Below are positions 10,540-62,460 of a stretch of DNA of 64,000 nucleotides, piece after piece; within the stretch, counting starts at the first letter, position 1; each line of letters begins with the position of its first letter. The stretch covers positions 416,001 through 480,000 of the forward strand of contig NZ_CP157522.1 of NCBI RefSeq assembly GCF_049075655.1. Reading direction: 5' to 3'. Source of the stretch: Methanothermococcus sp. Ax23. GTDB lineage: Archaea; AGJL01; Methanococci; Methanococcales; Methanococcaceae. A program made the position numbers and the translations under genes. The notes under the pieces are model-generated. The model made no database searches and was not told the origin of the DNA. It was given only the letters and a program-made list of their open reading frames with translations.

Positions 10540-10691
10540 AAGAAGCCTTTAAAAATCTCAAAATTCACTTCGTGAATTTATACGATGCCGTAGGCAGTAA
10601 TGAAATCCATGGATTTCATTTGATTTCTCGCTATCGCTCGAAAAGGATGCTATCCAAAGTCCAAACATCACTTCGTGATGTTTGGAGCCTA
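10540..10691 (-). repeat. composite palindromic (triloop hairpin) element downstream of tRNA-Ile
   Basis: AAATTCAC-TTC-GTGAATTT (10561), TGCC-GTA-GGCA, 22-bp palindrome 10599-10620, TCCAAACATCAC-TTC-GTGATGTTTGGA (10660); flanks shared with 54601-54662. Confidence 0.8.
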
Positions 10692-15439: not shown

Positions 15440-16820
15440 CTGACATACTCCCACGACTGAAGTCGTGGGGTTCTTTAGCAGGGTCTAACCCTACATGGGT
15501 TGCCAAGCCCACTACCCCTATCTCCGTTTAGGAGATTCAGGGCTACGCTACATGAAAATACTTTTTTTAAAATATTCAAAGCCCCGTTAATATCAGCATT
15601 CAACACAATCCCGCAATTACTGCATACATATAAACCCCTATACTTCCTATTACTCTTTTTAACCACACCACAATTACTACAAGTTTGAGAAGTATAAGAT
15701 TCATTAACCTGTTCTACTGTTAATCCCCTTTCCTCTGCTTTATACTGTATCATACTTACTAACCTACCAAAAGGTATCTTGTGTATTTTCTCGTTGTTCT
15801 TTCTACCAATATCAATACTTGAAATGCCCTTGTTTAACTCACCAATGACAACCCTTGAAACTTTGTTATCCACTGCAAAATCGATAATCATCTTACTGAC
15901 CTTATGAAGATAATCCTTAGTGTAGTTTTTCTCCTTTACTGTTAAGTGTGATAATCTTTTGTTATTCTTTAACTCCTGTTTTGTTAGTGCAGACTGTATT
16001 TTCCCCTTTGTTTTAGCAAACCATCGGAATTTAGAAATTAATCTCCTTCCATCGTAGATTACTGCACTGCCCGTGTTAGTTACTGCGGTCGCTAAATTCT
16101 TAATTCCTAAATCAATGCTCAGTATATTGCTTTCTTTAACTGGTTTTTGAATTACTGGTTTCTTATATATTAAATGAAGCATATAATAAGTTATACCATA
16201 GATTTTATGTGGAACTATTTCAACTTCTTTAACCTGCATGGTATCAAGCGGTAGAGTTTTCGATAACTCTACCCATAAGTACTTGGACTTGATACCATGC
16301 TTCTCTTTGAGATAGTTTTTAGTTTGTTTAGATAATGATAACCTTAACTTATTGCCTATGATTTTGAAACCTTGCTTCTTCCATTTTACTGGAAAATGCC
16401 CGTCTTTTGGTTGGTATCGTGGTCTTTTAGTGTGCTGTTTGAAAAAGTTATCCCATGCTATTGTGAGTCTTTGGCATACTGCCTGTGCTGACTGTGAGTG
16501 CAGGTTTTTAAACCAGAAGTTGTTCTTCATTTGAACATCTATTTTATTTGGTTTAATATTTCGTTGTATTACTTTATAATTGGATGTATTCCAGAGTTTT
16601 GATGCTGAGTAGGTTAAATGGTTTATGATTGTTAATTGTTCATTGGTTAGTTTTCTTGTTAGGTTTATTGTCAGCACTCTGGTTACTTGCATGGAATTCA
16701 CCAAATTTATATATGCCATTATTCTAATTACACTCATATATTATGTAGTTGAGCATATAAAAAAATGATGTCCGCCTATCATCCAACGATTAAAATCGTT
16801 GGCTTTCTCGGCGGTTTATC
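15440..16820 (-). mobile_element. IS200/IS605-family (IS1341-type) solo tnpB element
   Basis: Left end after TTAC (16824-16821) with hairpin CCAACGAT-TAAA-ATCGTTGG; right-end hairpin CCCACGAC-TGAA-GTCGTGGG followed by ...GTCAG; no tnpA. Confidence 0.82.
15475..16692 (-). CDS. tnpB: RNA-guided endonuclease TnpB (appears intact)
   Basis: RuvC motifs SIDLG / VIGEL / NADING, zinc finger CSNC..CSNC, NESYTSQ; GGTGA RBS before ATG 16692. Confidence 0.92.
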   Translation of the reverse strand: MQVTRVLTINLTRKLTNEQLTIINHLTYSASKLWNTSNYKVIQRNIKPNKIDVQMKNNFWFKNLHSQSAQAVCQRLTIAWDNFFKQHTKRPRYQPKDGHFPVKWKKQGFKIIGNKLRLSLSKQTKNYLKEKHGIKSKYLWVELSKTLPLDTMQVKEVEIVPHKIYGITYYMLHLIYKKPVIQKPVKESNILSIDLGIKNLATAVTNTGSAVIYDGRRLISKFRWFAKTKGKIQSALTKQELKNNKRLSHLTVKEKNYTKDYLHKVSKMIIDFAVDNKVSRVVIGELNKGISSIDIGRKNNEKIHKIPFGRLVSMIQYKAEERGLTVEQVNESYTSQTCSNCGVVKKSNRKYRGLYVCSNCGIVLNADINGALNILKKVFSCSVALNLLNGDRGSGLGNPCRVRPC

Positions 16821-22865: not shown

Positions 22866-22902
22866 CAACTAAATAATTAATAAAATACTCTGCAATTGAA
22901 TA

Positions 22903-23005
22903 GTGAAGTACCCCTTCCTTACGGAAGGGGCTTCCTGCATCATCCATCTCTTAACAGAGCATGTCAGACAGGCTCACCCCCGCCTTCCGCAGGTGCGTAG
23001 TGTAT
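22903..23005 (-). ncRNA. probable TnpB omega/reRNA scaffold
   Basis: GC-rich segment between tnpB stop and right end (CCTGCGGAAGGCGGGG..TGCAGGAAGCCCCTTCC), the usual position of the TnpB guide scaffold. Confidence 0.6.
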
Positions 23006-24168
23006 TTATAATCCAATTAGGTTCTGTCTGTCCAAAGCAAACTTTTTAATATTAACCGCCGCATTAACATCCCTATCATGCTCAGTATTGCAGACAGGAC
23101 ACTTCCAAACTCTATTCTTTAAGTCCAAATTACCATTATAATACCCACAAACAGAGCATATTTTACTGGAAGGTTCAAACCTACCTATTTTTATTATGGT
23201 CTTTCCAAACTTCTCAGCTTTATACATTAGTTTAGATACAAAAGAAGACCATGCTACATCAAGAATTGATTGGGCTAAATTGTGATTCTTAACCATTCCT
23301 TTAACATTCAAATCTTCCAACGCTATGGCTTGGTTTTCCGTGCAAATCAAAGATTTGCAGGACACAAAAATCTTCGATTTTTGCTGTCGCCAATTAATTT
23401 AAAAGAGAGTTTGTGTTGGAAGTCATTCCTTTGATTAGTAATTTTCTCATGTAATTTAGCAAGTTTTAACCTTGCTTTCTCTCGGTTTTTAGAACCTTTT
23501 TGTTTTCTTGAAAGTCTTTTTTGTAATACTTTTAACCTCTGCAAACTCTTTTTGAGATGCTTTGGATTATCTATTTTCTCACCGTTTGATAATATGCAAA
23601 AGTGAGTAATACCTAAATCGATACCTATTGTGGTTTCCTCATTGAATGGTTGTTTTTTAGGAATTGGTTTTCCATCCTCTACTATAATACTTATGAAGTA
23701 TTTACCTGTTGGAGTTTTTGAGATTGTTACTGTTCTCATTTCCCCTTCGAATTTCCTGTGGAGTTTAGCTTTAACCCATCCTATTTTGGGTAGAAATACT
23801 TTGTTATTCTCCCAGTCCAGTTTATAATGTTGGGGAATTTGGAAGGATTGTCTGGGATGTTTTTTGGATTTGAATCTTGGGAAGGATGATTTCCTTCTGA
23901 AAAAGTTGGTAAATGCCCTCTCCAAGTTCAGAGTTGCCCCCTGCAATGATTGGGAGTTTATTTCTTTTAACCATGGGAATTCTTTTTTTAGTGTTGTTAT
24001 GGTTTTGTTTAGTTGGAATCGTGATATTGCCTTGCCTGTTTGTTCGTAAGATTGGATTTTAAGATTTAATGCCCAATTATAGATGAATCTACATGCTCCA
24101 ATGTGTTTGTGGATTAGTGTTTTTTGTTCTTTGTTAGGGTGTAATCTGAACTTGTATGCTGTTAGCAT
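23006..24168 (-). pseudogene. tnpB: tnpB disrupted by a 50-bp hairpin insertion
   Basis: MLTAYKFRL HTH and GIDLG in ORF 23347-24168; ALEDL, CSVC..CPVC, DRDVNAA in ORF 23006-23365. Removing 23337-23386 restores ..KLIGENQAIALEDL.. as one 370-aa ORF. Confidence 0.9.
23337..23386. repeat. 50-bp double triloop-hairpin insertion
   Basis: TGCAAATC-AAA-GATTTGCA and (GACA)CAAAAATC-TTC-GATTTTTG(C-TGTC). Confidence 0.85.
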
Positions 24169-24259
24169 TTTATCACGATGTATTATTTATGTTAAGTATT
24201 TTAGTTGCTGTATTATTTATAATTTTTGGTCAGCTCTCATCCCGCCCTTACGAACGGGG

Positions 24260-24350
24260 GATGTCTGAGCGGAGCGAAGACATTTTAAAATCACCAACTT
24301 TGTTGGTGAGTAATGGAGCTCTGCTCCATCTGAACCGCAGGTTTTTATAA
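24260..24350. repeat. hairpin-cassette insertion inside the IS left end
   Basis: ATGTCT-GAGCGGAGCGA-AGACAT, TCACCAAC-TTT-GTTGGTGA, ATGGAGC-TCT-GCTCCAT, AACC-GCA-GGTT; absent from the equivalent left end near 16.8 kb. Confidence 0.75.
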
Positions 24351-24394
24351 ACTTCTCGCCGACATTAGATAAATAAAATAACTATCATTATTAT

Positions 24395-54600: not shown

Positions 54601-54685
54601 TAGGTTCCATTCATCACTTCGTGATGAATGGATTTTGGATAGCAACCTTTTTTAAAGGTTGCGTTTAAATCCCTCCGGGTCCGTT
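54601..54685 (+). repeat. palindromic element followed by a duplicate of the tRNA-Arg 3' end
   Basis: TCCATTCATCAC-TTC-GTGATGAATGGA, GCAACCTTT-TTT-AAAGGTTGC, then GTTTAAATCCCTCCGGGTCCG (54663), copying 54572-54592. Confidence 0.85.
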
Positions 54686-58604: not shown

Positions 58605-59906
58605 ATGACAATTGTTGATAGAGCTCATGAGTATCTTGAAAAAATTGAAAAATCAGACATAAATGCATACATACAAATTGATAAAGAGAGAGTTTTAAAA
58701 GAAGCGGAAGAGCTGGAAAAAAACGAGAAATTAAAAAACAAACCACTTTATGGAAAATTAATCGCTGTTAAATCAAATATAAATGTTAAAGGATACACAA
58801 TATCCTGTGCTTCAAAAACTCTTGAAAACTATGTGAGCTCCTACGATGCCACGGTGATTAAAAAGATAAAATCACAAGGGGGGCTTGTAATTGGAATGAC
58901 CAATATGGATGAGTTTGCAAGCGGAAGCAGTGGTGAAACATCCTATTACGGAGCTACAAAAAACCCAAACGCAGAAGGTAGAATTCCAGGAGGTAGTAGT
59001 TCAGGAAGTGCCGCCGCAGTAGCTGCTGATTTATGCGATATGGCACTTGGAAGCGATACAGGGGGAAGTATAAGAAACCCTGCATCACACTGTGGTGTTG
59101 TTGGATTTAAACCATCATACGGCGTAGTAAGCAGACAGGGATTATGCGACCTTGCAATGAGTTTTGACCAGATTGGACCTTTAACAAAAAGTGCAGAGGA
59201 TGCCCTTGTTTTAACAAATGTAATTAAAGGATTGGATATTTCAGACAGCACAACGGTAAATACTCCAAAATTCGAAAAGAAAGACATAGGAAATTATAAA
59301 ATCGGAATTGTAAAGGAATTCATGGAAGTTAGCGATGAAAAAATAAGAAACAAGATTGAAGAAGGTATCGAGGTATTTAAAGACCTTGGATGCGAAATTG
59401 TGGAATTAAGCTATAAATACACCGATTTGGCACTTCCTACATACTACTTAATAAATTATGTGGAGTTCTTCTCGGCAACAAGAAAATACGATGGAAGAAG
59501 ATATGGATATCCAATTGAGGAAGCGTGTGGTGAGGAAGTTTTAAGAAGAATTCTAATTGGAAAGCACATAAGTGAAAAAGAATTCAGCGGAAAATACTAT
59601 AAAAAAGCATTGCAGGCAAGAAGGTTAATGAAGATGGATATGTTAAAGCTCTTTAAGGAAGTTGATATCATTGCATCACCAACAGTTCCAAAACTTCCAC
59701 ACAAGATAGGGGAGGAGCTCACCCCAATGGAAATGTATGCCTACGATGTTTTAACAGTTCCTACAAATATCTGTGGAATATGTGCAGGAGTTGTTAAATG
59801 TGGAGATATAAACGGCATTCCAGTTGGATTGCAGATTCAAGGAAAGCCATTTGACGATGAAAAGGTATTAAGTGCTATGATTGAGTTAGACAAAATCACA
59901 AGGTGA
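58605..59906 (+). CDS. gatA: Asp/Glu-tRNA amidotransferase subunit A
   Basis: Amidase signature TNMDEFA, PGGSSSGSAAAV, GSDTGGSIRNPA; ATG 58605 after GGTGA. Confidence 0.95.
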   Translation: MTIVDRAHEYLEKIEKSDINAYIQIDKERVLKEAEELEKNEKLKNKPLYGKLIAVKSNINVKGYTISCASKTLENYVSSYDATVIKKIKSQGGLVIGMTNMDEFASGSSGETSYYGATKNPNAEGRIPGGSSSGSAAAVAADLCDMALGSDTGGSIRNPASHCGVVGFKPSYGVVSRQGLCDLAMSFDQIGPLTKSAEDALVLTNVIKGLDISDSTTVNTPKFEKKDIGNYKIGIVKEFMEVSDEKIRNKIEEGIEVFKDLGCEIVELSYKYTDLALPTYYLINYVEFFSATRKYDGRRYGYPIEEACGEEVLRRILIGKHISEKEFSGKYYKKALQARRLMKMDMLKLFKEVDIIASPTVPKLPHKIGEELTPMEMYAYDVLTVPTNICGICAGVVKCGDINGIPVGLQIQGKPFDDEKVLSAMIELDKITR

Positions 59907-59940
59907 TTTTGTTGCTCGCTTGCGTAGCAAGCGATTCGAA
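59886..59940 (+). repeat. two-hairpin mini-element overlapping the gatA stop codon
   Basis: ACAAAATCAC-AAG-GTGATTTTGT then TCGCTTGC-GTA-GCAAGCGA. Confidence 0.8.
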
Positions 59941-62406: not shown

Positions 62407-62460
62407 TTAGACGAAAACCTTCGGTTTTCGTTTACTCGCTTATTTCGTAAGCGATTAGAA
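62407..62460 (+). repeat. two-hairpin mini-element between secE and spt5
   Basis: TTAG-ACGAAAACC-TTC-GGTTTTCGT then TCGCTTA-TTTCG-TAAGCGATT. Confidence 0.8.

Follow-up and report, generated by a model that had tools for sequence, protein, structure and literature searches.

Why does a tnpB gene of the methanogen Methanothermococcus sp. Ax23 run as two open reading frames (ORFs), and what is the short palindromic sequence that lies at the break? The gene is located in a stretch of 64,000 nt (the window; C1:416001-480000, with positions that lack the C1 prefix counted from its first letter) of a genome of 1.67 Mb that has a G+C content of 32% and is assembled in two contigs with 98.9% completeness. 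Its gene content, its relatives and the labels of the matching sequencing runs are those expected of a hydrogenotrophic vent methanogen, and gene content, G+C content and relatives point to the order Methanococcales. It belongs to an insertion sequence (IS) of the IS200/IS605 family, namely, an IS1341-type tnpB element on the minus strand, and is interrupted by 50 nt that form two hairpins. These 50 nt are an insertion with exact limits, for which an empty site is available; similar modules are scattered through the genome, and the IS copies that carry the insert are mosaic. We conclude that the insert is probably a tiny, gene-less palindromic insertion element, one of a family of modules of 37-57 nt, that most likely knocks out the IS1341-type tnpB.

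The 50-nt insert and its empty site

The IS and the insert comprise the following features, listed by position.

22900..23005, minus strand: non-coding 3' end of the IS, where the omega RNA and the right end are expected, with a subterminal hairpin at 22911-22930
23006..23336, minus strand: C-terminal part of tnpB, with RuvC-II (ALEDL), a CxxC...CxxC zinc ribbon and RuvC-III (HDRD), out of frame relative to the N-terminal part
23006-23365, minus strand: C-terminal ORF of tnpB, with the Cas12f1-like TNB zinc-ribbon domain
23337..23386, minus strand: 50-nt double-hairpin insert, consisting of a 3-nt tail (CAG), hairpin 1, a 5-nt spacer (TGTCC), hairpin 2 and a 4-nt tail (CGGA)
23341..23359, minus strand: hairpin 2, TGCAAATC-TTT-GATTTGCA, perfect 8-bp stem
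23347-24168, minus strand: N-terminal ORF of tnpB, with the HTH_OrfB_IS605 and OrfB_IS605 domains
23365..23383, minus strand: hairpin 1, CAAAAATC-GAA-GATTTTTG, perfect 8-bp stem
23387..24168, minus strand: N-terminal part of tnpB, from codon 1 to the second base of codon 261; its IGIDLG motif is taken as RuvC-I
24169..24370, minus strand: 5' end of the IS, with the left-end hairpin at 24238-24263

Read along the minus strand, the gene runs through ...AAATTAATTGGCGA, the 50 nt and AAACCAAGCC..., with the N-terminal ORF continuing out of frame as far as 23347, such that the HTH_OrfB_IS605, OrfB_IS605 and TNB domains (E-values 1.5e-19, 2.3e-27 and 3.3e-23, respectively) are split across both ORFs. 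The initial annotation held that removal of exactly 50 bp, at a junction ambiguous by GA, restores a complete 370-amino acid (aa) TnpB with no other lesion, and joining the two ORFs without the insert reproduces this result, giving 370 codons and a stop, with no internal stops. The insertion point falls in codon 261, and the 2-nt GA overlap at the junction is compatible with either a target duplication or chance. Once the 50 nt are removed, the D-E-D residues of the RuvC domain are all present, in the IGIDLG, ALEDL and HDRD motifs that we take to be the sites of the catalytic residues. In a designed RNA-guided nuclease of 408 residues (9yyg), the position aligned with the glutamate of ALEDL (E17 of the C-terminal ORF) is 278, presumably the RuvC-II glutamate of that protein. 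E17 lies 7 codons past the junction, in agreement with the earlier placement of the break just before this residue. The C-terminal ORF is also matched by the solved ISDra2 TnpB chains 8exa and 8h1j.

The insert itself is short, gene-less, hairpin-forming and frame-breaking. A 70-nt stretch folded as DNA reaches -15 kcal/mol (z about -4), a value equalled by 1 of 200 shuffles, and the ends of the insert, CAGC... and ...CGGA, are not inverted repeats of each other. The host IS has subterminal hairpins on both sides and no terminal inverted repeats. The Y1 (IS200-type) transposase TnpA (PF01797) has no match across the 98.9%-complete genome, and the element is of the tnpB-only type. Over the window, Rfam at the gathering threshold yields three tRNAs only, assigning neither the hairpins nor the IS end to a family, and a DNA search for the IS in the genomes of 40 relatives produced no useful match.

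Two metagenome contigs (L084 and L085) contain the same IS, with 93-94% aa identity, and an empty site, ...AAATTAATTGGC|GAAAACCAAGCC... (TTGGC|GAAAAC), at which the sole difference is the 50 nt. Three intact paralogues within the genome are collinear over the junction. Both halves of the gene are held by 156 of 160 related loci, which differ in length at the junction by 0 (115 loci), +3 (27), +9 (12) or -18 nt (2), so that none of these 156 relatives has a frame-breaking length change at this point. Given these length differences and the exact 50-nt difference at the empty sites, the alternative of a simple frameshift fails, and the original view of the insert as a discrete unit is upheld by the exact empty site in both contigs together with the filled/empty pairs for related modules described below.

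A check for sister copies of the IS identified one within the genome (copy B, C1:913225-914634; the copy in the window is denoted copy A), which is about 94% identical to copy A and bears the identical insert, whereas L084 and L085 are empty. In a four-way comparison, copies A and B and L084 are identical over window positions 23040-23424 except for the insert; toward the 5' and 3' ends, they diverge at dozens of sites, and the flanks of the segment differ by several percent. L085 represents the same chromosomal site as copy B, given that the flanks match, and lacks the insert, with a central segment that differs from that of copy B. The IS copies are mosaic, and the insert-bearing segment has been exchanged between them by homologous recombination, or gene conversion, which is how both genomic copies came to carry the insert. 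The insertion is young, as the roughly 385 bp around it have gained no substitution since the split from the insert-free allele.

The IS copies differ by other hairpin blocks as well. In its 5' end, copy A has three hairpins within a block of about 87 nt (about 24264-24351; perfect hairpins at 24291-24329) that is missing from copy B, L084 and L085. In their 3' region, these three have an insert of their own, a 56-nt double hairpin that is absent from copy A. L085 also has an extra C in a C-run near the tnpB start (about 620-640 in the locus), which represents a frameshift or a homopolymer error.

A genome-wide family of hairpin modules

The chromosome contains 366 perfect hairpins with a stem of at least 9 bp, vs 75 in a first-order Markov shuffle. 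A filter of at least two G/C per stem leaves 75 arrays in the genome, each made up of two to four neighbouring hairpins, of which 12 are located in tnpB ORFs, 8 at IS ends beside tnpB, 26 at solo right ends of a second tnpB family (hereafter, family X), 6 in frame in other long ORFs and 23 elsewhere. The exact 50-nt insert is present in only 2 genomic copies, but its layout and its single hairpins are found at many sites. For hairpin 2, the genome contains 10 copies of the 15-nt core. A conserved hairpin motif, TTAGACRAAA...TTTYGTTG, the distal stem of which varies by paired changes, has 42 matches in this genome; of the 39 other genomes of the order, 13 have between 1 and 8 matches, and the reversed control yields none. 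Among the 21 loci with a TNB domain, 9 are frame-broken, all 9 at a hairpin module and with no stops inside their reading frames.

Apart from the 50-nt insert, filled/empty pairs are available for modules of 47, 37 and 51 nt in family X, for the 56-nt module of the IS 3' region and for a 57-nt module in a P-type ATPase gene. Junction overlaps of 1-2 nt (GA, AT, TT, A and T) were read from the alignments of five filled/empty pairs, and fit either a tiny duplication or microhomology.

Family X consists of nine genomic copies, and a frame-breaking module is present in seven of these and absent from two:

47-nt module of family X, between ...CQKL. and IAWQNYF: layout ATTAG, hairpin, TGC, hairpin
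Family-X copies with the 47-nt module: C1:130893, 894137, 1075506, 1125379, 1279253, 1499309 and 1504659

Other modules show presence/absence variation in the same family, namely, a 48-nt module that is in frame (3 of 7 aligned copies), a 51-nt module between the right-end hairpins (2 of 7 aligned copies) and a 37-nt module in an arm of the left-end hairpin (8 of 9 copies). The window itself includes an intact 421-aa family-X tnpB (15478-16464, minus strand; C1:431478-432464), which is one of the two copies without the 47-nt module and the sole copy whose left-end hairpin escapes the split by the 37-nt double hairpin. A 426-aa tnpB paralogue that is 66% identical to family X (C1:946116-947393, minus strand) contains an extra in-frame stretch, ...HYTK TEGFRCSPLRSE HTK..., just past the site of the family-X module, which may be a decayed or in-frame module.

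Modules are also found in frame in genes other than tnpB:

C1:281382-281434: in-frame double hairpin in a DDE-type transposase
C1:313974-314022: in-frame double hairpin in a radical-SAM-like ORF
C1:1064237-1064279 and C1:1536610-1536650: in-frame double hairpins in two kinase-like ORFs
C1:1121799-1121847: 57-nt in-frame double hairpin in a P-type ATPase (L203)
C1:1296062-1296107: in-frame double hairpin in an intein-bearing Hel308-like helicase

The helicase, radical-SAM, kinase and DDE names were read from the translations and are not Pfam matches. The ATPase module adds 19 residues that are missing from all 4 orthologues found in the family, and has the same layout as the 50-nt insert, with a 4-nt tail, a hairpin, a 5-nt spacer, a hairpin and a 4-nt tail. 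At C1:1134572-1134621, a module lies between ORFs of 94 and 209 aa, and removal of about 40 nt in silico yields a 279-aa fusion; the locus has the appearance of a host gene (DUF362-like, as judged from the sequence) broken by the module. An identical 45-nt module of family X is located in an rve-type transposase gene of two other genera (L197, G017:C1:155400-158400; L200, G034:C1:846300-848300), and it is present twice in G017, whereas in G034, the ORF reads through it in frame.

Within the window, other hairpin modules lie outside long ORFs, at 10599-10620, 54606-54662, 59890-59934 and 62411-62454. A deletion scan for restored ORFs also produced matches at C1:557351, 1214765, 1505716 and 1135171 that were dropped, as the modules there seem intergenic.

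Origin and spread of the modules

The 50 nt, taken here as an insertion element of two adjacent perfect hairpins with short tails, entered codon 261 precisely, with a repeat of at most 2 nt (GA). The resulting frame shift uncouples the catalytic C-terminal third of the protein (zinc ribbon, RuvC-II and RuvC-III) from the N-terminal part, and, judging from the sequence of the broken gene, the nuclease is most likely knocked out. Mobilization would be provided in trans by some enzyme, and the excess of modules in IS605-type DNA would mainly reflect relaxed selection, perhaps together with preferred insertion at IS ends that are rich in hairpins or single-stranded.

Several observations weigh against this explanation. 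A search for a donor of the 43-nt insert core, allowing up to 3 mismatches, retrieved only the two IS copies in this genome and nothing in the 39 other genomes of the order; given that there is no donor copy and that only single hairpins recur, cutting or copying from a master element stays hypothetical. A candidate mobilizing enzyme was not found either: the Y1 transposase was ruled out as the mobilizer by the absence of its gene from the genome, and no link to the modules was found for two IS607-type serine recombinases. (The IS607-type units, each a serine recombinase with an adjoining 438-aa tnpB, are located at C1:46898-48455 and C1:1510781-1512338, and the second recombinase match contains one TAG.) Finally, the module-bearing copies of family X show a pattern of purifying selection, with a ratio of nonsynonymous to synonymous substitution rates (omega) of about 0.15 (range 0.10-0.25, both over the 77 codons upstream and over the 326 codons downstream of the module), and with private variants in a synonymous to nonsynonymous proportion of 20:13, compared with 30:17 for the two intact copies. 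Such a pattern, seen on either side of the module, is unlike that of old pseudogenes.

The modules could instead be targeted anti-transposon elements, with a real insertion preference for IS605-type ends or single-stranded intermediates, that silence the IS in the manner of the SMR-A elements of Haloquadratum, the hit in tnpB being a consequence of targeting. The initial annotation suggested as much, proposing that the hairpins parasitize or silence IS200/IS605 elements, and the part of this proposal that stands is the association itself: 46 of the 75 arrays reside in tnpB ORFs, IS605-type ends or solo ends, and the frame-broken tnpB genes are all broken at a module. Furthermore, modules lie within or between the near-terminal palindromes of family X (the 37-nt one in the left-end arm, the 51-nt one flanked by the two right-end hairpins), the rve-type transposase genes of two other genera share the 45-nt module, and the passages on SMR-A in PMC3119063 offer a published precedent. 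However, modules also lie in six other long ORFs, all in frame, and in 23 other or intergenic places, namely, the broken DUF362-like gene and 22 further sites. Moreover, the 46 IS-associated arrays are not independent but mostly copies of a few events that travel with the IS, the flanks of the filled sites compared have no target word in common, and the genome encodes no Y1 transposase that would produce single-stranded IS intermediates. The part of the initial proposal that invokes single-stranded DNA exposed during transposition finds no support here. Because modules are also found outside IS DNA, relaxed selection explains the skew as well as targeting does; it can produce such a skew because, in essential genes, only in-frame copies survive. 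The data do not separate relaxed selection from targeting of hairpin-rich ends, and we regard targeting as a tenable but rather unlikely account.

A different possibility is recoding, whereby the module is skipped at the level of RNA or translation, by ribosome hopping as across the gap of 50 nt in T4 gene 60, by a programmed -1 frameshift or by excision from the transcript, and tnpB stays functional. More broadly, the 47-50-nt modules would then be recoding or switch elements that are skipped by the ribosome or by RNA processing, as an archaeal equivalent of the T4 gap or of mitochondrial bypass elements, or else precisely excised, for reversible on/off control of RNA-guided nucleases, a role that we consider improbable. 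The case for recoding comes mostly from family X, where the 47-nt module is invariant across the seven copies, even though the synonymous divergence (dS) of the flanks reaches 0.3, and where, in addition to the low omega values and the similar proportions of private variants in filled and intact copies, neither part of the module-bearing genes contains a stop codon. In an alignment read by eye, no in-frame ATG, GTG or TTG is found over about 73 codons downstream of the family-X module. Both families also have a pair of ATT codons spaced by 44 nt, the first in the upstream and the second in the downstream frame (four family-X copies have ATA as the second). As for the 50-nt insert, a contig from an RNA library (X13, a vent metatranscriptome), 6-9% diverged from copy A, differs from it, among the sites listed, mostly at third codon positions (N-terminal part, 26 of 35; C-terminal part, 4 of 5).

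These observations are offset by others. The X13 contig keeps the insert, although it could stem from DNA carry-over and is no proof of transcription, and no joint that skips the insert is listed in any of the four runs with relevant contigs (X1, X2 and X3 from DNA, and X13; the comparison is of contigs, and these are silent on rare spliced forms). As for the ATT...ATT pair, ATT is a common codon in this AT-rich genome. Bypass of the T4 gene 60 type involves a stop or an undecodable codon right after the take-off codon, and here, the would-be take-off codon is followed by GGC. A -1 frameshift was rejected in the absence of an X XXY YYZ slippery heptamer, with A/T runs only five long and the second hairpin too far downstream. 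An archaeal bulge-helix-bulge intron was rejected as well: in a scan of both modules, the junctions contain no canonical motif, and the 12 relaxed matches (shuffle mean 5.2, maximum 17) include none at a junction that restores the empty site. Some family-X copies have a relaxed motif capable of removing the 47 nt, and in others this motif loses a pair. Polymorphisms common to empty and filled family-X copies demonstrate recombination, which can bring selected variation into dead copies, and the selection pattern in this family is better explained by recent, site-specific spread of the module by recombination among until-then functional copies than by recoding. Since the 50-nt insert is demonstrably young in its IS, no selection argument applies to it. 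Altogether, we deem it improbable that recoding keeps these tnpB genes functional.

It appears equally doubtful that the double hairpin arose locally de novo, for instance when replication or repair involved template switching or snap-back synthesis, possibly with copying of short hairpins from other sites. Such an origin is compatible with the lack of an identical donor copy, with the perfection of both stems, with the 1-2-nt microhomology at the junctions and with the reappearance of single hairpins in varied pairings. However, unrelated genes share the layout of tail, hairpin, 5-nt spacer, hairpin and tail, in 50-57 nt, and several genera have near-identical copies of other modules, which together give the modules the look of a mobile family; in addition, the flanking tnpB sequence holds no template for either hairpin. 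An assembly or sequencing artefact, one of the conditions under which the initial annotation would have failed, has a negligible chance of being the explanation, given that independently assembled Logan contigs from three DNA runs (X1-X3, with three organism labels and from three studies) bridge the insert without a gap, as does the one from the RNA library, and that two copies in the assembly bear it.

Comparison with known repeats and implications

If, as we think probable, the 50 nt are an insertion element, its nearest known counterparts are the palindromic repeats of Methanocaldococcus jannaschii, the Rickettsia palindromic elements and the SMR-A repeats of Haloquadratum. The repeats of M. 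jannaschii, some of which are fused in frame into protein genes, are attributed to Suyama, Lathe and Bork (2005, FEBS Lett 579:5281) in the part of the review by Delihas (2008, PMC2229807) that deals with them. Like the modules described here, these are short, gene-less palindromes that lie mostly outside genes, with some in frame in protein genes, and the host order appears to be the same. The resemblance is one of description; the copy studied here differs in being frame-breaking and located in tnpB, and the modules are built of interchangeable single hairpins, one conserved motif of which has 42 copies against at most 8 in any of the 39 other genomes.

SMR-A, a small mobile repeat of Haloquadratum walsbyi, is described in the relevant passages of PMC3119063 as a transposase-free repeat of about 110 bp with terminal inverted repeats, often located in IS605-type transposons or PATEs, within near-terminal palindromes; it is highly conserved within a type and mostly lies outside the transposase ORF. 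That SMR-A inactivates IS605-type elements has already been proposed there (Dyall-Smith et al. 2011, PMC3119063). The modules of Methanothermococcus are likewise small, transposase-free repeats, with many copies in IS605-type DNA, but are only 37-57 bp long and variable in sequence, are made of two hairpins, lack terminal inverted repeats and, in several cases, are located inside tnpB ORFs and host genes. SMR-A insertion involves no target duplication; the GA overlap of the 50-nt insert may be either such a duplication or chance.

Rickettsia palindromic elements (RPE) and MITE-like intragenic repeats (MITE, miniature inverted-repeat transposable element) are covered in sections of the same review (Delihas 2008, PMC2229807). 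The resemblance to RPE is that hairpin-forming selfish repeats persist in ORFs when the frame is kept, as with the 57-nt module of the ATPase. RPEs are about 100-150 bp long and typically in frame, unlike the 50-nt, frame-breaking copy studied here. Classical MITEs have a fixed target duplication and terminal inverted repeats that match a resident transposon, whereas the modules lack terminal inverted repeats and have variable junction overlaps.

Tiny two-hairpin mobile units in genes and spacers are known from fungal mitochondria, in the form of mobile GC clusters and the double-hairpin elements of Allomyces, along with related translational bypass elements; the ribosomes of one yeast lineage hop over inserts of this type that lie in coding regions. 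Those elements are organellar and, unlike the modules analyzed here, GC-rich in an AT-rich background. REP/REPIN sequences are hairpin units, often paired, with a tetranucleotide head such as GTAG, and are mobilized by RAYT (Y1) transposases, a logic akin to that of IS200/IS605 ends. Here, there is neither a Y1/RAYT gene in the genome nor a conserved tetranucleotide head. The present case differs from these known kinds in the very small size of the modules, the modular reuse of single hairpins and the frame-breaking hits in tnpB as the dominant lesion.

Together, the 50-nt insert and its exact empty site show cleanly, as a natural pair, the states before and after the arrival of an insertion unit that ranks among the smallest known from archaea. 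In this methanogen, tnpB is usually broken by a hairpin mini-element rather than by random decay. For annotators, the modules account for a class of "split" tnpB genes and for odd inserts of 16-19 residues in housekeeping proteins. The case bears on how tiny, gene-less palindromes move, here with no Y1 transposase and no donor copy. Were purifying selection found to act on the module-bearing copies themselves, this would point to recoding in archaea. The modules also bear on whether hosts or rival selfish elements restrain RNA-guided TnpB nucleases.

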